Shown piece by piece: positions 1 through 62,635 of a stretch of DNA of 64,000 nt (position 1 is the stretch's first letter; each line of letters begins with the position of its first letter). The translations under genes and the position numbers were made by a program. Where the stretch lies: NCBI GenBank assembly GCA_027485695.1, contig JAIXQO010000004.1, positions 110,056 through 174,055 of the forward strand, read 5' to 3'. A model generated the notes under the pieces. The model was given only the letters and a program-made list of their open reading frames with translations, ran no database searches and had not been told where the DNA came from. The DNA is from Pseudomonadota bacterium (lineage in GTDB: Bacteria > Bdellovibrionota > UBA1018).

Positions 1-714
1 TACTTGAACAACGGCGGCCGCGCGATCATCGCCATCGACCTACTCCTCAAGTCCAAAGGCGGCGAGACCTCACCGGAACTCGTCTCCATCCTTAAGGACT
101 GGGGCATCCAAGCGGAGTCCGCGCTGATCATTGATCCGGTTTCGCGCGCGCTGAACTTGGAGCCCACGGTGCCAATCGCACCCACGTTCTCGATGCAGCA
201 TCCGATCACAGCCGATATGTCCGGTAACGTGATCGCACCGCTCTCGCGTCCGCTCACGATCCAGAAAACCCTGCCTCCGAACGTCGCCGTCGAAGCCATT
301 GCATCCACGACTCCAAACGCTTGGGGCGAGCGCGATATGAAATCGCTAGAGTCCGGAACGGTGAAATTCGATTCGAACTCCGACATTCGAGGCCCGATGA
401 CGATCGCCGCCGCCGTTCAGGGTAAAAAAGCAGGCGCCAAAGACGAAACCCGTTTCGTCGTATTTGCGACCTCCTATTTTGCGGCGAACCAGTTCGCTCG
501 TTTTGACAAAAACACCGACTTGTTTGCGAACTCGCTCAGCTGGGTCGTGGGCGACGACAACTTGATTTCCATCCGCCCGAAAGATGCGGGCGGTGGCCTC
601 GTACAGCTCAGCCAGAAAGCAGGTATCGCGATTTTCCTGACGTCTGTCATCGTTGTGCCTCTGCTTTTGGCGATTGCCGGTATCGTGGTCTGGAGACTTC
701 GCAAACGGTTGTAA
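1..714 (+). CDS. GldG-like ABC-transporter auxiliary component, C-terminal part (5' end lies outside window)
   Basis: ORF 4..714 is open to the window start. The product resembles the C-terminus of GldG-family proteins and ends in a hydrophobic membrane anchor (IAIFLTSVIVVPLLLAIAGIVVW) followed by RLRKRL. It is followed by a DUF4340-type gene, as is usual for this family. Confidence 0.55.
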   Translation, partial: YLNNGGRAIIAIDLLLKSKGGETSPELVSILKDWGIQAESALIIDPVSRALNLEPTVPIAPTFSMQHPITADMSGNVIAPLSRPLTIQKTLPPNVAVEAIASTTPNAWGERDMKSLESGTVKFDSNSDIRGPMTIAAAVQGKKAGAKDETRFVVFATSYFAANQFARFDKNTDLFANSLSWVVGDDNLISIRPKDAGGGLVQLSQKAGIAIFLTSVIVVPLLLAIAGIVVWRLRKRL

Positions 715-822
715 AAATAAATCGCCGACGACCGGGCTCCTGCCCTGCTGAAAATCGCGCCGTAGGCGCGACCGCTTCACGCTTTTTCAGACTCGCGGAC
801 GATTTATTTCTTACAACCGTTT
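703..822 (+). repeat. Structured intergenic element, copy 1 (conserved core CCGGGCTCCTGCCCT...TCGCGCC-GTA-GGCGCGA...CGCTTCACGC inside a 22-bp outer stem)
   Basis: Outer arms 703-724 (AAACGGTTGTAAAAATAAATCG) and 800-822 (CGATTTATTTCTTACAACCGTTT) are reverse complements. The core at 732-793 is shared with copies at 62472-62578 and 53817-53931 (reverse orientation). Confidence 0.7.
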
Positions 823-853
823 GATGAATAAGGCATTTTAGCTCGCGTGTTTT

Positions 854-2392
854 TTGAGTGAATTTGGAGAGAGTATGAGTTTTCGAACGCCTTTGATCTT
901 ATCCGCCATCCTGCTCGTCTTGGGTATGACCGCGTATTGGCTCGAGTTCAAGAAACGTCCCGAGGACGAAAAACGCGAACGCGCCGCCAAGCACCTCTTG
1001 GTAATGGATGATCAATCACTCAAGTCCATTCGCCTCAAGCAGGGACCGCAAACGATTCAGATCGACTGTTTGAATGTCGCCGAGAAACTCTGCAAGCCCG
1101 GCGACCTTTCGCAGTGGGAACTCACTGAACCACTGAAAACCAAAGCTGACGATTCAAACGCCAATAGCCTGCTCTCCACGCTCAGCGGTTGGGATCCCGT
1201 CGATACGATCGATCTCTCCAAGGACTCGCCCGAGAAACGCCTCTCGCTTCTCGACGAATATGGCCTCAGCGAAAAACGCCGCGTCGGAGCTGACCGGACC
1301 ATCGACATCGAATTCGCCTCCGGCAAAAAAACCTCGCTCGTTTTCGGAATCAAGCATCCGGCGGTGGATGCCTATTTCGTGCTCAAAGGCGCCGATGGAA
1401 AACTGGATGAAACTCAAGTTTTCCTGCTCGAATCCTCCGCGCTCTCCGCAACCGACAAACCGCTCACGTATTTCCGGGATAAACGAATTTTCTCGCTCGC
1501 CCAAAACGAAGTGAAAGAATTCCGTCTGAAATCGAAATCCGGCGCATCCCCCATCGTCGGTAAACTCGAAGGATCGGACTGGAAAATCACCGAAGGCGCG
1601 AAGTCTCTACCCGCAGATACGGACGCCGTGAACGCACTGATTAGCGCAACGTTGTTCCTGAACGCCAAAGGGTTCACCTCGAACGACCAAGCTTCGGCCG
1701 ACGCACAGAAATTGATCGGCAAGCTCCCAACCGTGCTTGAGATCGAACTCGTGACCGCGAATAAGAAACAATCGCTGAAATTCCTCGAACGCACGTTCGT
1801 CGATCAAGGCAAGAAGGCGTCGGTGATCTACGCGATTTCGCCCGAAGCCTCGCCCGTATTCGAACTCGATACAAGCTCAGTCATCCGAGTCGGCAAAACT
1901 TGGAACGAACTCCGCCTAAGGAAACTCGTTCAATCCATGGATCGATTCAGCATCGACCGGTTGAAAATCGTACGCACCGGTAAAACGGCTTTTACGAAAT
2001 CGCTCGAGAGCCGCGAGGCAAAATGGCACGATCAAAAACGTGTTTTGGACGGCAATCCGATCAATCAATTCCTCGATGCGCTGAGCGGCCCTGCACTCGC
2101 AGAAAACATCTCGCCACGAGTGAATGAAACCCCCGCCGAAGCCGTTCGCATCGAGCTTGGGATTGGCGCATCCGATGTTCGCTACATTTACACGTTTTTC
2201 GAGAAGAACGGAAAATGGTGGGCACGAGATGAAAAACGCGCCGACCGCCAACTGTTTGAACTCTCCGCTGAACTTCAGAAAGCACTCCCGCTGACGGAAG
2301 CGTTTTTACAAGACCCCAAAGCCAATCCTGAGCCCGAAGCTCCCGGCATGGACTCCCCTGATCACGCCGACGGCGATGGTCATGATCACTGA
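854..2392 (+). CDS. DUF4340-like protein (GldG partner), N-terminal TM segment, acidic His-rich C-terminus
   Basis: 512-aa ORF directly downstream of the GldG-like gene. It has an N-terminal membrane helix (LILSAILLVLGMTAYWL). The domain call is from recalled family architecture, not a search. Confidence 0.45.
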   Translation: MSEFGESMSFRTPLILSAILLVLGMTAYWLEFKKRPEDEKRERAAKHLLVMDDQSLKSIRLKQGPQTIQIDCLNVAEKLCKPGDLSQWELTEPLKTKADDSNANSLLSTLSGWDPVDTIDLSKDSPEKRLSLLDEYGLSEKRRVGADRTIDIEFASGKKTSLVFGIKHPAVDAYFVLKGADGKLDETQVFLLESSALSATDKPLTYFRDKRIFSLAQNEVKEFRLKSKSGASPIVGKLEGSDWKITEGAKSLPADTDAVNALISATLFLNAKGFTSNDQASADAQKLIGKLPTVLEIELVTANKKQSLKFLERTFVDQGKKASVIYAISPEASPVFELDTSSVIRVGKTWNELRLRKLVQSMDRFSIDRLKIVRTGKTAFTKSLESREAKWHDQKRVLDGNPINQFLDALSGPALAENISPRVNETPAEAVRIELGIGASDVRYIYTFFEKNGKWWARDEKRADRQLFELSAELQKALPLTEAFLQDPKANPEPEAPGMDSPDHADGDGHDH

Positions 2393-45762: not shown

Positions 45763-45847
45763 CATTCGCACAGTTTTGCCTGATGAACGAGAGAACGACA
45801 AACGGGAAATCGACCTACGGGAATGGTCCACGCATGGGAATAAAAGA

Positions 45848-46026
45848 GGCCCACGATGGGCCGTAGATAAGATCGGCATGACAGCCGATCTTCACGCGTA
45901 AGCGAAGCGTCGCGCCCGTAGGGCAAGGCCCACGATGGGCCGCAGATAAGATCGGCACGACAGCCGATCTTCACGCGTAAGCGAAGCGTCGCGCCCGTAG
46001 GGCAAGGCCCACGATGGGCCGCAGTA
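45848..46026. repeat. 79-bp tandem repeat, 2.3 copies, each unit built of four short hairpins
   Basis: Units start at 45848, 45927 and 46006 (GGCCCACGATGGGCC...). Two SNPs separate units 1 and 2. Units contain GGCCCA-CGA-TGGGCC, GATCGGC-ATGACA-GCCGATC and GCCC-GTA-GGGC hairpins. Confidence 0.85.
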
Positions 46027-53074: not shown

Positions 53075-53734
53075 ATGAGCGAAACCCTGCCCGCCCAACG
53101 AAAATTCTGCTACCGCTGCCGGCGCGCCGGAGAGGGCTGCTACTGCACGGATATCCAGACCTTTAGGCCGCCTTTTGACCTTTTTCTCATTGTCCACCCC
53201 CGGGAATCGCGCAACCTCGTGGGTAGCGTCCGAATCGCCCACTTGAGCTGCGAGCACTCCACCTGGGTCGAGGGAATCGGCGAAGACATCGATCGCTCCC
53301 CCATTGTCCTCGGTGCTCTATCGAATCCGAAACTCGCGCCGATGATCCTCTACCCCTCACCGCATGCAGTTCCCTTGGACCGAATGACCGCCCAGAACGT
53401 ACCGAACGATCGACGTCTTGCTCTTTTTGTCATCGATGGAACCTGGTATCAGGCGAAACAACTCATTCGCCGTAGCCTCATCTTATCAACCCTGCCTTCG
53501 GTGTCGTTTACGACGGATCGCGTTTCTGAATACGGTTTTCGCAAGCAACCGCACGATTATTGCCTCTCGACCGTCGAAGCCGTGCATGTTGCCATCGACG
53601 CCTACCTTCGTAGTCCAGTCGCTCCCCCCATGGAAGCGCGCCCGCACGACCGAATGATGGATATTTTCCGAAAAATGGTGCGAACTCAGCTGGCGTTTAA
53701 CAGCCAGCCGCGCTCATTGCGTAATCCCATTTGA
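53075..53734 (+). CDS. DTW-domain tRNA-uridine aminocarboxypropyltransferase (TapT-like)
   Basis: N-terminal Cys cluster CYRCRRAGEGCYC and the DGTW motif (FVIDGTWYQAK). Confidence 0.65.
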   Translation: MSETLPAQRKFCYRCRRAGEGCYCTDIQTFRPPFDLFLIVHPRESRNLVGSVRIAHLSCEHSTWVEGIGEDIDRSPIVLGALSNPKLAPMILYPSPHAVPLDRMTAQNVPNDRRLALFVIDGTWYQAKQLIRRSLILSTLPSVSFTTDRVSEYGFRKQPHDYCLSTVEAVHVAIDAYLRSPVAPPMEARPHDRMMDIFRKMVRTQLAFNSQPRSLRNPI

Positions 53735-53816
53735 AGCGGTAGCCTATTGAGAGCCCATGAAACTACGACTCTCGGTTTCAAACATTCTGTTTTACTCCCA
53801 GTCCTTCTGTTGCTTC

Positions 53817-53931
53817 GGCAATCGCTCGCAGTTGACTCTCGACTTCGAGTCAAGCGTGAAGCGTTCGCGCCTTTGGCGCGATGACTCGGAGGGCAGGAGC
53901 CCGGCAAGAGAGTCAACTGCGAGTGATTGCC
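53817..53931 (-). repeat. Structured intergenic element, copy 3 (reverse orientation) abutting the start codon of the downstream gene
   Basis: Reverse complement contains CTTGCCGGGCTCCTGCCCT...TCGCGCC-AAA-GGCGCGA-A-CGCTTCACGC. The 24-bp outer stem 53817-53840 / 53908-53931 is perfect on plus-strand RNA with one G-U pair. Confidence 0.7.
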
Positions 53932-53932
53932 G

Positions 53933-54829
53933 ATGAAAGAGAAACTCACGCTCGTCCTTTTCAAGGATCACCAAAACGCCAGAACGTTCGAGCTCCCGCT
54001 CGAGCGGATTGAGCGCACGGGCATCCTCTATGTTCTCGTTATTTTCCTCGCCTTACTCTCGTCGGCATTCATGGTGAGAAGCGCCTATCGAATGTTGAGC
54101 TCTCGAGACGAAGGCTCCATCGACAAAGTCCGCTCCCTGACCCAAGAACTCGCCGAAGTCCGCGCCTCTTATCAAGCTCTTCAGGCACATTTATCCGGAC
54201 AACCGGCATCGAGTCTCACGCCGACTTCGATGAGGAGCATCCTGTTTACTTCGATTCCTACCCAATCCCTGCAATCGCCGCTGCCGTCGCGCGAGAGTCT
54301 ATCGTTTCGCTTGGAGCCGGTGAATTTCCGCTGGCAGGGGAATTTCTTGCAGATCAGCACCGCGATCGAATACCGCAAAGGCGACGACGGCAACCAGCAA
54401 GGAAACTTCGTGATCCTCGCGCAAGGCCCTCAGAATCTCTATGCGCATCCCGAGGGCGCGTTCTCGGATGCCGGGCAAGAAGTCCTCATGGAACCTGAAT
54501 CGGGCGAATATTTTTCGGTCAGTCGCTACCGAGAAATTCGCGCGCGCTTCGGTCCGGTTGAACGCCACGATCAAATCCAAAGCATCCAGGTTTACATCTT
54601 CGACAAGAACAAGAACCTGATTTACTTCGACCGCGTCTCGCTCACCGACGCCGAAAAAGACGCCGGCGCATCGACTGCTCCCGCACCCACGAGTACGACC
54701 GCTCCAAAGCGTCGCGCGGCACCGAAGCCTGCCCCCGAAGAGGAATCCTCAGACGCGTCTGAGGCAACCGCAACTCCAGCCAAGGAAACGACCCATGAAA
54801 CAGGAAGCGATTCGGGAAACAACGAGTAG
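53933..54829 (+). CDS. Membrane-anchored hypothetical protein with Pro/Ala/Thr-rich C-terminus
   Basis: The track ORF begins at TTG 53927. The ATG at 53933 (MKEKLTLVLF...) is preferred. One TM helix (ILYVLVIFLALLSSAFMV). Confidence 0.35.
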   Translation: MKEKLTLVLFKDHQNARTFELPLERIERTGILYVLVIFLALLSSAFMVRSAYRMLSSRDEGSIDKVRSLTQELAEVRASYQALQAHLSGQPASSLTPTSMRSILFTSIPTQSLQSPLPSRESLSFRLEPVNFRWQGNFLQISTAIEYRKGDDGNQQGNFVILAQGPQNLYAHPEGAFSDAGQEVLMEPESGEYFSVSRYREIRARFGPVERHDQIQSIQVYIFDKNKNLIYFDRVSLTDAEKDAGASTAPAPTSTTAPKRRAAPKPAPEEESSDASEATATPAKETTHETGSDSGNNE

Positions 54830-61583: not shown

Positions 61584-61913
61584 TCGAACGAATCATCACT
61601 GTAGAATTCGAAAATCAGGATTCGGTCCTCACATTTTAGCCTGAATTCCACGTAAAATGCGGATGAATGCGAATTTTTCGCGACATGAAAAAATTGTCCT
61701 GTATAAGAAGCAACTCTGTTTCTTTGTTTCGCCATGATGACGAAATCGAGAACAGGCTTCTAACCAACCCGTACAACTGATCGACTGCTTGCAGACGCTT
61801 CCCACCGAGAGTTCGAGATGACCGCAAGGTCCTCTTGATCACGAGACGAAGACGTTGATCTGCTTCGTTTCAGGATGGGGACGAGTAGATGAGTAGTGGA
61901 TCATGGAGTAGTC

Positions 61914-62468
61914 ATGAAAACCGCAATCGCTCTGTCCCTCTTGTCTGCAATCACCGTATATTCCGCTTCAGCCGCATCGATCGAAGGATGCTACACGACC
62001 GACGACAGCCAGATCCCGCTGATCTATATCCAGAAAAACTCCGTCTCTTACAAACTCTCGACGGAACTCGTTTCCCCGACCACCCGTTACAACGGCAGAA
62101 CCGGTGACCCATACACCACCTATGACGGAAAAAAGGAAATCGTATCGACGGTTTTCGAAGCCTCCGCTTCTCCTGAAGCAACGACCTTTACCTACATCCC
62201 GATGTCACGAGACCCAGACGTGAAAGTTGCCAAAGGTTACAAAGTTGCTTCAGCGGTCACAAATGATCGTACGGCCGCCGCTAAGATCTCTTCCAAGATT
62301 TTTGTCGCATTCAACCCACTGAACTCCCGCCCAATTGTCGAAGTTCAGGCGAAGATCCAAGAACCTCGCAAATTTAACCAGTTCCTCCTCTGGAGCTCCA
62401 AACGCACGATCGAAACGACGATCGCCAAGAAGCTCTCGAACTCCGTTTGCGAGCGCGCTGGACTCTAA
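61914..62468 (+). CDS. Secreted hypothetical protein
   Basis: Signal peptide MKTAIALSLLSAITVYSASA. Confidence 0.35.
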   Translation: MKTAIALSLLSAITVYSASAASIEGCYTTDDSQIPLIYIQKNSVSYKLSTELVSPTTRYNGRTGDPYTTYDGKKEIVSTVFEASASPEATTFTYIPMSRDPDVKVAKGYKVASAVTNDRTAAAKISSKIFVAFNPLNSRPIVEVQAKIQEPRKFNQFLLWSSKRTIETTIAKKLSNSVCERAGL

Positions 62469-62471
62469 GGC

Positions 62472-62578
62472 GGTTTTTAAAAGGGTTTGCTTGCCGGGCT
62501 CCTGCCCTACTGAAAATCGCGTCTATTAGACGCGAGCGCTTCACGCTTTTTCAGACGCGCAAAGCCCTTTTAAAAACC
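62472..62578 (+). repeat. Structured intergenic element, copy 2
   Basis: Outer arms GGTTTTTAAAAGGGTTTGC / GCAAAGCCCTTTTAAAAACC. Core TTGCCGGGCTCCTGCCCT-ACTGAAAA-TCGCGTC-TATTA-GACGCGA-G-CGCTTCACGC-TTTTTCAGAC. Confidence 0.7.
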
Positions 62579-62597
62579 TAATGCAGTTAAAAACAAA

Positions 62598-62635
62598 AGA
62601 GGCCTCTCGGAATCCGAGGAGGCCTCTTTAATTTT
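62598..62635. terminator. Bidirectional rho-independent terminator between convergent genes
   Basis: AGAGGCCTC-(TCGGAATCCGAG)-GAGGCCTCT, flanked by an A-run on the 5' side and TTTAATTTT on the 3' side. Confidence 0.6.

Follow-up and report, generated by a model that had tools for sequence, protein, structure and literature searches.

Short hairpins scattered over a bacterial genome can be functional RNAs, host DNA sites or mobile elements. Which of these applies to a repeat with a constant core that is enclosed, at each locus, in a different long stem? The question is raised by the end of a GldG-like gene (ABC_transp_aux, PF09822) in the window, i.e., the whole 64-kb stretch of Bdellovibrionota DNA that is analyzed here. 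The first of three copies of such a repeat begins in the last four codons of this gene (RKRL*), upstream of a DUF4340 gene, precisely where the original prediction placed it. The shared core sequences named in that prediction are all present as exact matches. The conserved 5' sequence CCGGGCTCCTGCCCT matches exactly at three sites in the window, one in copy 1, one in copy 2 (62494-62508, plus strand) and one in copy 3 (53890-53904, minus strand), and each of the three is adjoined by GCGCGA-N-CGCTTCACGC. The inner stems read as described (GCTGAAAA/TTTTTCAGAC in copy 1 and CCGAGTCA/TGACTCGAA in copy 3), as does the compensated hairpin of copy 2 (TCGCGTC/GACGCGA). The outer stems, for which 20-24 bp had been proposed, are present at each copy and are slightly longer (Table 1).

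A covariance model search of the entire window with filters switched off scores 68-73 bits at copies 1-3, which belong to the seed alignment of the model, and 13 bits or less everywhere else. The predicted folding energies of the three copies range from -49 to -71 kcal/mol (z from -6.9 to -9.5), and none of 200 shuffled sequences folds as well. Apart from terminators and the outer repeats of these copies, the 64 kb contain no spaced inverted repeats that are both long and well matched.

Table 1. Parts of the three copies and the segment missing from a close relative (window coordinates)
Feature	Coordinates	Strand	Remarks
Copy 1, entire element (outer stem and core)	702..823	+	Spans the GldG-like stop codon; between the GldG-like and DUF4340 genes; orthologous copies in L070 and L071
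Copy 1, outer-stem 5' arm and linker	702..731	+	Native DNA; pairs with 793-823
Copy 1, within the 5' arm	702-714	+	Last 4 codons and stop codon of gldG; the rest of the arm is former DUF4340 codons 3-8
Copy 1, conserved 5' module CCGGGCTCCTGCCCT	732..746	+	Mini-hairpin P2 (GGGC-TCCT-GCCC), 5' strand, between outer and inner stems
Copy 1, inner stem P3, 5' strand GCTGAAAA	747..754	+	Pairs with 784-792
Copy 1, variable hairpin P4 (TCGCGCC gta GGCGCGA)	755..771	+	
Copy 1, conserved 3' module cCGCTTCACGCT	772..783	+	Bulge of 12-13 nt, 3' strand, between P4 and P3
Copy 1, inner stem P3, 3' strand TTTTCAGAC	784..792	+	
Copy 1, outer-stem 3' arm	793..823	+	Inverted copy of 702-731
Copy 1, 'extra' DNA from the 3' arm to the present DUF4340 start	824..874	+	About 51 nt; carries a new Shine-Dalgarno sequence
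Copy 2, entire element	62472..62578	+	Begins 3 nt past the stop codon of ORF 61896-62468; bidirectional terminator hairpin downstream (62590-62635)
Copy 2, outer inverted repeat	62472-62493 with 62557-62578	+	
Copy 3, entire element	53805..53943	-	5' arm is 53908-53943 (plus-strand coordinates)
Copy 3, outer inverted repeat	53805-53840 with 53908-53943		36 nt, 89% complementary
Segment present in the window and missing from L086	53747..53925	-	179 nt

A family of hairpin elements in Bdellovibrionota

Scans of genomes and metagenomes combined with the covariance model yield about 36 copies in total, all of them in Bdellovibrionota MAGs. Pattern matches outside this phylum do not exceed 25 bits and, as far as seen, the family is confined to Bdellovibrionota, nearly all the comparison sequences being MAG or metagenome contigs. 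The core of about 65-75 nt forms a single long hairpin, with P3 stacked on P4, and only two asymmetric modules are conserved, namely, a mini-hairpin in the 5' strand (CGGGCTCCTGCCCT) and a bulge in the 3' strand (ACGCTTCACGCTT). The overall architecture is that of a three-way junction with linkers of 0-2 nt and conserved nucleotides at the junction and in the bulge. The conserved nucleotides belong to the unpaired modules, and P1, P3 and P4 vary freely with covariation; P4, which mostly has a 3-nt loop, also varies in length. Every stem is variable in sequence and nevertheless paired (97.6% in P3, 97.8% in P4 and about 90-94% in the outer stem), and pairing drops to 42-48% when the partners are slid by 1-3 columns. 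Both sides have changed in 25 of the 27 pairs, and the covariation score is 0.81 compared to 0.19 for shuffled data, with 0 of 500 shuffles reaching the observed value. This strong stem covariation over 36 copies bears out the proposal of a structured family with a conserved architecture, as opposed to a MITE bearing terminal inverted repeats.

Searches of Rfam 15 produce no match in the window at the gathering score and none to the element in the orthologous loci L070 and L071 up to E = 10. A viral contig collection and a plasmid collection contain no match, and nothing relevant was found in the literature on the motif, on REP or MITE elements of Bdellovibrio or on 'inverted target site duplication'.

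The outer stem as an inverted copy of the 5' flank

The outer stem is 9-88 bp long, with near-perfect identity between its arms. The outer arms of the 36 copies are mutually unrelated, save that the innermost 3-14 bp are sometimes common within one genome. For example, L006 and L067, as well as L046 and L066, are copies with identical cores at different loci of one genome and with unrelated outer stems; between L006 and L067, identity of the outer stems is limited to the innermost 14 bp. The gene-specific outer stem of the original prediction has not evolved independently. Its 5' arm is native DNA, and its 3' arm is a reverse-complement copy of this DNA that arose when the core was inserted. 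The 3' ends of tRNA genes (3, 7 and 20 nt) lie inside 5' arms, and their reverse complements lie inside the respective 3' arms. All five informative cases (the three tRNAs, copy 1 and copy 3) have the same polarity, that is, the 5' arm is native. The outer edge is located within 20 nt of a gene end for 11 of 18 5' arms and for 1 of 19 3' arms (Fisher p = 0.0004), as expected if the 3' arm is the only added DNA; the edge of the 5' arm coincides with a gene end because this arm is native intergenic DNA. The idea that the outer stem ends at the gene end since copying halts there was withdrawn because stem length correlates only weakly with how far the core lies from the gene end (rho 0.32, p = 0.29). 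The possibility that pre-existing palindromes served as targets was rejected on the basis of a palindrome-free empty site, discussed below, and of the tRNA cases, given that tRNA 3' ends could not earlier have carried their own inverted copies. No direct target duplication is detectable at the outer-stem edges of 35 copies, and neither a common motif at the outer ends nor a fixed target motif where the 5' flank meets the core was found.

An empty site for copy 3

Copy 3 is located in a short spacer just upstream of a start codon, and its 5' arm overlaps this codon and the first codons of the downstream plus-strand gene (53933-54829). In a close relative, L086 (94-97% amino-acid identity), the site is empty: the dinucleotide GT corresponds to the 179 nt of the window, and there is neither a palindrome nor a replacement element. 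The window and L086 make up the one filled/empty pair among close relatives. The site is likewise empty in the more distant relative L072, the only genome in which the genes at this position overlap; L073 is uninformative about the junction, its contig being incomplete. In the element orientation, the insert consists of the inner outer-stem arm, the core, the inner arm, the inverted flank copy and 58 nt of 'extra' DNA (53747-53804). The inverted copy of the native 5' flank is imperfect (16 of 20 positions), and comparison with L086 reveals no direct target duplication. This insertion polymorphism indicates that the element is mobile.

In the two copies for which an outgroup is available, the 3' arm is succeeded by about 55 nt of 'extra' DNA (54 nt in copy 1 and 58 nt in copy 3), and no source of it was found. 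Its interpretation as a decayed extension of the inverted copy or as a copy of nearby DNA is not significant; the same applies to the resemblance, suggestive by eye, of 53746-53785 to a degenerate second copy of the beginning of the 53933-54829 gene. Within the 8-20 kb examined around each copy, there is no transposase or other recurrent ORF, and neither a trans-acting enzyme nor an autonomous partner came to light.

Origin and retention of copy 1

In the outgroup L083, gldG and the DUF4340 gene overlap (ATGA), and the overlap is followed by AAATAAACTACCAACG. This sequence matches the 5' arm of the ortholog of copy 1 in L071 at 14 of 16 positions, a score that none of 300 shuffles reaches. Copy 1 is thus shown to have a native 5' arm, made up of the last codons of gldG and former codons of the DUF4340 gene. 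The non-native stretch beyond the 3' arm, 54 nt if counted through the new ATG and two bases further (to 877), is missing in L083. By this comparison, copy 1 separated two genes that had overlapped and been translationally coupled, and it imposed a new start site.

Conservation in related genomes, which had been named beforehand as a check, is indeed observed: L070 and L071 have both retained copy 1 between gldG and the DUF4340 gene, and 10 of its pairs show compensating changes on the two sides. The inner stem of L070 contains TCC/GGA in place of the AAA/TTT pairs, and the 3' arm follows synonymous changes in the gldG codons across the orthologs. The element is 80-86% identical among the orthologs, compared to a divergence of 37-53% at four-fold sites, and the spacer downstream of it is scrambled. 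Copy 1 is older than copy 3, and at least this copy has been held by purifying selection, presumably as an intercistronic mRNA hairpin.

A proposed mode of insertion

We give an even chance to the explanation that this family consists of new non-autonomous mobile hairpin elements that are inserted with fold-back copying of the flank and whose effects at the RNA level are secondary and only sometimes selected. The unit that is copied would be the core of about 65-75 nt, with the two conserved modules as the likely recognition surface for a putative trans-acting factor. Once the core reaches a new site, folding would place its 3' end beside its 5' end, and DNA synthesis could then turn back along the 5' flank (by folding back or switching template), so that the reverse complement of this flank is laid down 3' of the core. 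The product would comprise the native flank, the core and the inverted flank copy, with an outer stem of 9-88 bp that is peculiar to the locus and with no direct target duplication. Subsequent template switching within the hairpin would keep the stems Watson-Crick and yield multi-base 'compensatory' changes, and the element would be co-transcribed with its neighbors as a hairpin of -50 to -70 kcal/mol.

Under this explanation, the majority of copies are probably passengers that the host tolerates. Copy 1, however, is under purifying selection that extends to its non-coding arm; a constraint of this kind at the level of the host is not in itself predicted by a selfish-element model. Retention of the two motifs in different families of the phylum is no less expected of a host RNA or protein-binding site than of a mobile element.

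Signatures of RNA and DNA

A host cis-acting RNA is a possible alternative that we consider rather unlikely. Such an RNA would form a highly stable hairpin in a 3'-UTR or between cistrons, in which the two single-stranded motifs dock an RNA-binding protein or an RNase, with stabilization, processing or uncoupling of the neighboring genes as the outcome; multiplication and fold-back stems would be merely the way in which the copies originated. The positions of copy 1 (inside an operon) and copy 2 (between a stop codon and a terminator) are transcribed ones, as this alternative implies, but copy 3 is antisense to both neighboring genes and is missing, unreplaced, in close relatives. Among the copies between tandem genes, about 3 are sense and about 7 antisense, although two convergent genes in L059 each have a sense-oriented copy behind them. 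This inconsistent orientation argues against a purely sense-strand sRNA or 3'-UTR element, both of which had been listed as candidates in the original prediction. The conserved nucleotides are unpaired, as in functional RNAs, and selection has maintained copy 1 over substantial four-fold-site divergence, with three G-U pairs on the sense strand tolerated among its orthologs. Family-wide, however, G-U pairs are nearly absent (4 of 432 cells of the two inner stems, <1%), and pairing is almost purely Watson-Crick. The only counter-hint to this missing strand signature comes from the loops: in four or five lineages the 'sense' strand carries a C(TTCG)G tetraloop, compared to one with CGAA, a strand excess that hints at selection on the RNA form. 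Outer stems that extend to 88 bp or engulf 20 nt of a tRNA are hard to explain as RNA design, and the family has no relative in Rfam. In short, the covarying stems expected of cis-acting RNAs in general are present, whereas strand-specific tolerance of G-U pairs and consistent orientation are not seen.

Compensatory change had originally been taken to argue for a functional structured RNA or DNA element. The change is real but, in this family, it is not good evidence of RNA function because the pairs are almost exclusively Watson-Crick, the outer-stem mismatches are strand-symmetric (16 G.T and 19 A.C) and the stem lengths vary widely. This combination of features is a mark of DNA-level copying or template switching, a process that creates and repairs perfect stems without selection (PMC8794818) and results in perfect stems, multi-base compensations, homogenization of arms and inversion of spacers (PMC8794818, PMC8604942).

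Several specific readings at the RNA level were examined. None of copies 1-3 is followed by the T run of an intrinsic terminator, the terminator hairpin next to copy 2 being separate and located downstream. Interpretation of the CUCCU/AGGAG loop as a CsrA site or an anti-Shine-Dalgarno sequence receives no support from the other copies.

A host site that acts as DNA is improbable. According to this hypothesis, a hairpin or cruciform in single-stranded DNA is bound by a conserved Bdellovibrionota protein involved, e.g., in replication, repair, nucleoid organization or a defense system. Orientation-independent placement would fit such a site, as would Watson-Crick-only stems, which let both strands fold alike, the retention of asymmetric motifs across families of the phylum, and the intergenic, dispersed location of the copies. 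Yet the number and positions of copies differ among close relatives, 21-55 kb of syntenic DNA in related genomes contain zero copies, and neither a spacing rule nor an associated gene is apparent. Furthermore, a spacer of 65-75 nt between inverted arms, as in this family, disfavors cruciform extrusion from duplex DNA.

Comparison with known elements

We regard as very improbable the explanation of the family as a conventional MITE or IS fragment, or as REP/REPIN sequences moved by a RAYT-type transposase, with pre-existing target palindromes as the outer stems. The resemblance is considerable, given that the elements are small, non-coding, multi-copy, intergenic hairpins, that identical cores occur at separate loci of one genome, and that direct target duplications are missing, as in the single-strand transposition of the IS200/IS605 type. 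The outermost sequences, however, are unrelated between copies, so there are no common terminal inverted repeats; the empty site in L086 contains no palindrome; the tRNA 3' ends could not have borne inverted copies beforehand; and other long inverted repeats are not typical of the intergenic DNA of the window. MITEs (Correia/NEMIS, ERIC, RUP and others) are similar to the present family in their small size, dispersal, hairpin potential and effects on neighboring transcripts. In MITEs, terminal inverted repeats are common to the whole family, and each copy is flanked by a direct target-site duplication of fixed length. Both features were tested in the present family and are absent; its 'terminal repeats' differ at each locus and derive from the target.

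A REP-like site is the nearest of the options offered in the original prediction. REP/BIME and REPIN sequences (mobilized by RAYT, an IS200/IS605-like Y1 transposase) are likewise short non-coding multi-copy hairpins found in both orientations in intergenic regions and 3'-UTRs, often kept at orthologous sites and co-transcribed (possibly as mRNA 3' hairpins), with no internal transposase, and the absence of a direct target duplication is a further shared feature. In REP, it is the palindrome itself that is conserved, with a head such as GTAG, whereas the present family has variable stems, conserved unpaired modules and no GTAG-type head. None of the REP/REPIN sequences has a flank-copied outer stem, and no RAYT gene was seen in the 8-20 kb flanks of the copies. 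The PATEs, which derive from IS200/IS605, would be compatible with the missing target duplication but have conserved hairpins at the left and right ends and are inserted 3' of a fixed tetra- or pentanucleotide, in contrast to the unconserved stems and the lack of a fixed motif at the flank-core junction observed here; flank copying is foreign to PATEs.

Other similarities concern the folded structure or its formation. Integron attC sites are recognized as folded single strands with variable stems and asymmetric extrahelical features that specify strand identity, but their outer ends are conserved (R''/R' core sites) and the middle is variable. The present family shows the reverse pattern, with locus-specific ends that do not match R'' (RYYYAAC) and R' (GTTRRRY), and occurs without cassette arrays or an integrase context. 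The retron msr-msd region has a similar topology, in which locus-specific a1/a2 inverted repeats surround a small stem-loop followed by a long hairpin. The present family differs in having dozens of dispersed copies, an msr-like part of only 14 nt and flank-derived outer stems; the copies abut ordinary housekeeping genes and tRNAs and, judged by the recurrence of flanking ORFs, have no adjacent reverse transcriptase gene. The terminal hairpins of parvoviruses and AAV are Y- or T-shaped, with small internal arms in a long stem, and involve hairpin-primed inverted copies with 'flip' and 'flop' forms. These hairpins are ends of linear viral genomes with a conserved stem and a Rep nickase, unlike the stems of host flank within a bacterial chromosome described here, and the resemblance is one of mechanism only.

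An independent small RNA gene family, a self-cleaving ribozyme or a riboswitch would account for the three-way junction, the conserved junction and bulge nucleotides and the covarying stems, but is very improbable, given the lack of Rfam matches even at E = 10, of promoter-like or terminator-like sites in a scan of copy 3 and of junction linkers long enough (they are 0-2 nt) for known ribozyme cores, along with outer arms that overlap stop codons, start codons and tRNAs and the location of most copies 3' rather than 5' of genes.

For the preferred explanation, insertion with fold-back copying, a precedent is template-switch (quasipalindrome) mutation or fold-back inverted duplication, in which one event produces a reverse-complement copy of adjacent DNA (PMC8794818, PMC8604942). 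Stems that are Watson-Crick only and of variable length fit this process, as does the native/copied polarity of the arms, but it is known as a sporadic event in arbitrary sequences and not as a regular companion of the spread of one core to many loci.

Implications

To our knowledge, an insertion mode that involves copying of the flank is not shown by known bacterial repeats. We tentatively propose, with distinctly less than even confidence, that the family represents a kind of bacterial mobile element that has not been described before. A 3' end of the target DNA would prime the copying of a structured DNA or RNA template of about 70 nt, after which the new strand would fold onto itself and synthesis would return along the target, so that the target duplication is inverted rather than direct and variable in length. 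A dedicated enzyme (nickase, polymerase or reverse transcriptase) with its gene at another place in Bdellovibrionota genomes might then act on the element through the two conserved asymmetric motifs.

If insertion indeed proceeds by fold-back copying, an inverted target duplication around a conserved core would be a signature of mobile DNA that is missed by current repeat and IS finders because these seek shared terminal repeats and direct duplications. The family would also be a natural, many-times-replicated case of template switching that builds long perfect hairpins, with a bearing on the origin of RNA stems and a warning that covariation alone can arise without selection at the RNA level. 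The element remodels gene junctions, as in copies 1 and 3, fuses hairpins to tRNA 3' ends and places very stable hairpins in the mRNAs of a poorly studied phylum of predatory (Bdellovibrio-like) bacteria.

Sequence, fold and distribution of the repeat

Rereading of the sequence bears out the original prediction of three related structured stretches in the window. The motif that they share, CCGGGCTCCTGCCCT, occurs exactly three times in the 64 kb, each time followed 27-28 nt downstream by GCGCGA-N-CGCTTCACGC. The common fold consists of an outer stem (P1), a mini-hairpin (P2, GGGC-UCCU-GCCC), an inner stem (P3) and a variable hairpin (P4), with a bulge of 12-13 nt separating P4 from the 3' strand of P3 in each copy. 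Folding energies range from -49 to -71 kcal/mol (z-scores, -6.9 to -9.5), and the reverse complements fold equally well. Terminators aside, the window has no other spaced inverted repeats that are both long and well matched. In the + strand mRNA, P1 of copy 3 forms a 36-bp helix that buries the start codon of a neighboring gene and the preceding 25 nt, and should hinder translation initiation unless it is opened.

Scanning 185,579 species genomes for the exact pattern identifies 69 loci, 23 of which have the full architecture, all in Bdellovibrionales, Pseudobdellovibrionaceae or Bacteriovoracaceae MAGs; the others are chance matches in G+C-rich genomes. A covariance model built from 28 copies finds the three copies alone in the window (68-73 bits; runner-up, 13 bits), detects additional, more divergent copies among the collected loci, and gives at most 25 bits to loci outside Bdellovibrionota; a metagenome scan adds five further copies. 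In these searches, the family is restricted to Bdellovibrionota, where not every member carries it: a total of 76 kb of syntenic DNA from further relatives (L074 and L083-L085; L-numbers denote comparison loci from other genomes or metagenome contigs) contains zero copies. Rfam 15 holds nothing resembling the element, and neither a viral contig collection nor a plasmid collection contains a similar one.

Coordinates of the copies and associated features
Feature	Sequence	Positions	Strand
Copy 1	window	702-823	+
Copy 2	window	62472-62578	+
Copy 3	window	53805-53943	-
Extra DNA, copy 1	window	824-877
Extra DNA, copy 3	window	53747-53804
Insert replacing GT, copy 3	window	53747-53925
P1 helix, copy 3	window	53908-53943
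Gene starting inside this helix	window	53933-54829
Copy 3 junction	window	53730-53940
Empty site with spacer	L086	960-1010
Gene overlap at this site	L072	560-580
Copy 1 region	window	700-880
Overlapping gldG and DUF4340 genes	L083	9990-10030
tRNA-adjacent copy	L030	2836-2925
tRNA-adjacent copy	L033	5024-5100
tRNA-adjacent copy	L050	7350-7426
tRNA-adjacent copy	L051	229-313
Copy past LysM/transglycosylase-like gene	L037	3457-3574
Copy past LysM/transglycosylase-like gene	L047	2230-2392
79-bp tandem repeat	window	45847-46024
Tandem array	L057	381-677
First paired copy	L059	3215-3335
Second paired copy	L059	3449-3578

Conserved modules and variable stems

Conservation across 36 copies is limited to two asymmetric modules. 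One, nCGGGCTCCTGCCCT, separates P1 from P3 on the 5' strand; the other, A-CGCTTCACGCTT, separates P4 from P3 on the 3' strand and is conserved together with its flanking base pairs. The remainder consists of stems of free sequence. Pairing across copies is 97.6% in P3, 97.8% in P4 and 90% in the first 11 pairs of P1, falling to 42-48% once the partners are slid; 25 of 27 pairs show double-sided change, and the covariation score is 0.81 versus 0.19 in shuffles. Full-length P1 alignments (9-88 bp) are 94% paired. Even within one genome, copies differ in the length and sequence of P4, the loops of which are mostly 3 nt. The pairs are almost purely Watson-Crick: G-U accounts for 4 of the 432 cells in P3 and P4, and G.T mismatches in P1 are as common as A.C (16 and 19). 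RNA helices do not usually have this appearance; such stems result when, at the DNA level, one arm is copied from its partner (PMC8794818, PMC8604942).

The outer stem as an inverted copy of flanking DNA

Comparison of occupied loci with native sequence indicates that P1 arises as an inverted copy of the DNA 5' of the core, the part inside P1. Three elements lie directly downstream of tRNA genes, and their 5' arms take in the final 20 nt (L050), 7 nt (L030) or 3 nt (L033) of the tRNA; the 3' arms contain the reverse complements of these ends (e.g., TGGCGCGCCCGGAAGGATTT); because the tRNA end is native, the 3' arm is the copy. At the copy 1 site, gldG and the DUF4340 gene of the distant relative L083 overlap by ATGA, and the sequence after the overlap (AAATAAACTACCAACG / TTCAAAACTCCG) agrees with the 5' arm and linker in the orthologous L071 copy at 14 of 16 positions, a score reached by 0 of 300 shuffles. 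Past the element, the DUF4340 gene picks up at the same codon, F(K/R)TPLILS. The 5' arm of copy 1 is thus native and contiguous, comprising the last gldG codons followed by former DUF4340 codons, and the inserted DNA consists of the core, the 3' arm and a stretch of about 55 nt with a new ribosome-binding site and ATG. Relative to the L083 arrangement, this insertion broke a translationally coupled pair.

L006 and L067 have identical cores, but their P1 stems agree only over the innermost 14 bp, beyond which each has a separate 20-bp extension. In 11 of 18 cases, no more than 20 nt separates the outer edge of the 5' arm from the end of an upstream gene or tRNA, compared to 1 of 19 for the 3' arm and a downstream gene (p = 0.0004), which fits a 5' arm carved from pre-existing spacer and a 3' arm of added DNA. 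The polarity is identical in all five cases with an identifiable native arm.

For copy 3, L086, from the same source metagenome as L070, provides an empty site, GGTAGCCTA-GT-ATTGCCGATGAAAGAG, whose GT is replaced by 179 nt in the window; the two sequences encode DTW proteins with 94% identity and downstream proteins with 97% identity, and differ at 23-32% of four-fold sites. In element orientation, the insert begins with an inner arm of 16-18 bp, followed by the core and the matching arm, then by CGATTGCCGAAGCAACAGAA and 58 nt. CGATTGCCGAAGCAACAGAA is an inverted copy of TTCTCTTTCATCGGCAATCA, the native flank, with agreement at 16 of 20 positions (by our own calculation, a chance of about 4e-7). 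There is no direct duplication relative to the L086 site. The more distant L072 is likewise empty, and copy 3 postdates the split from the L086 genome. The genes overlap only in L072; L086 already has a 21-nt spacer, and it was in this spacer, shortly before the start codon, that copy 3 landed.

In copies 1 and 3, for which an outgroup or an empty site is available, 54-58 nt of extra DNA with no detectable source separates the copied 3' arm from the resumption of native sequence. At copy 1, this DNA gives the DUF4340 gene its new start codon and ribosome-binding site.

Age and constraint of copy 1

Copy 1 is older than copy 3: its orthologs occupy the same place in L070 and L071 (DUF4340 proteins 92% and 82% identical, respectively). 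In the comparison of these orthologs, pairing is kept in 97.9% of cells, and 10 pairs show compensated, double-sided change. They include changes in the right arm mirroring synonymous changes in the last gldG codons, and a three-pair block of P3 swapped from AAA/TTT to TCC/GGA. The element is 80-86% identical, versus four-fold site divergence of 37-53%, and the downstream spacer is scrambled. Template switching can account for the kept pairing but not for the kept sequence, which therefore points to either purifying selection or core conversion from other copies.

Nature of the element

By their defining tests, the family belongs to neither MITEs, REPs, attC sites, terminators nor Rfam families, and is therefore grouped with the dispersed hairpin repeats of bacteria, as a novel form; there is a real, if less than even, chance that its insertion chemistry is new. 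The best-supported account is a non-autonomous mobile hairpin, the arrival of which would be coupled to fold-back copying of adjacent DNA. The same kind of template switching as at insertion would keep the stems perfect, and the RNA form would be an unavoidable by-product, sometimes selected.

The element has no fixed orientation: about 3 sense and about 7 antisense copies occur in tandem-gene settings, and copy 3 is antisense to both neighbors. No promoter-like or terminator-like site is present at copy 3, and the terminator hairpin at copy 2 is separate from the element. A C(TTCG)G loop recurs on one strand in several lineages, a hint in the opposite direction from these results. No transposase or other recurrent gene was found adjoining the copies. 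Four of about 33 independent copies are tRNA-adjacent, three beginning 36-41 nt past the tRNA end and one stopping 13 nt before the tRNA start, which exceeds the expectation from the tRNA share of gene ends (Poisson p about 0.014 for three). In two genera (L037 and L047), a copy lies just past the stop of homologous LysM/transglycosylase-like genes (46% identical), in opposite orientations and with unrelated outer stems, reflecting either independent insertions or in-place inversion.

Tandem, paired and relic forms

An intergenic region of the window contains 2.3 tandem units of 79 bp (97% identical), each with a pair of short, perfect hairpins, GGCCCA-CGA-TGGGCC and AAGATCGGC-ACGACA-GCCGATCTT. 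The minus strand of the unit also contains TGCCCT-ACG-GGCGCGA-CGCTTCGCTT, similar to the 3' half of the element, of which the unit may be a rearranged relic. In L057, three tandem repeats of ~97 bp comprise the left outer arm and the 5' half of the core, and the last alone is completed by the 3' half; thus, the element can seed tandem duplication. In L059, a single intergenic region between convergent genes contains two copies, each following one of the genes in the sense orientation, with P3 and P4 sequence in common; the motifs (CGGACTCCTTTCAT, GCGCATCCTGCTT) and outer stem of the first are decayed.
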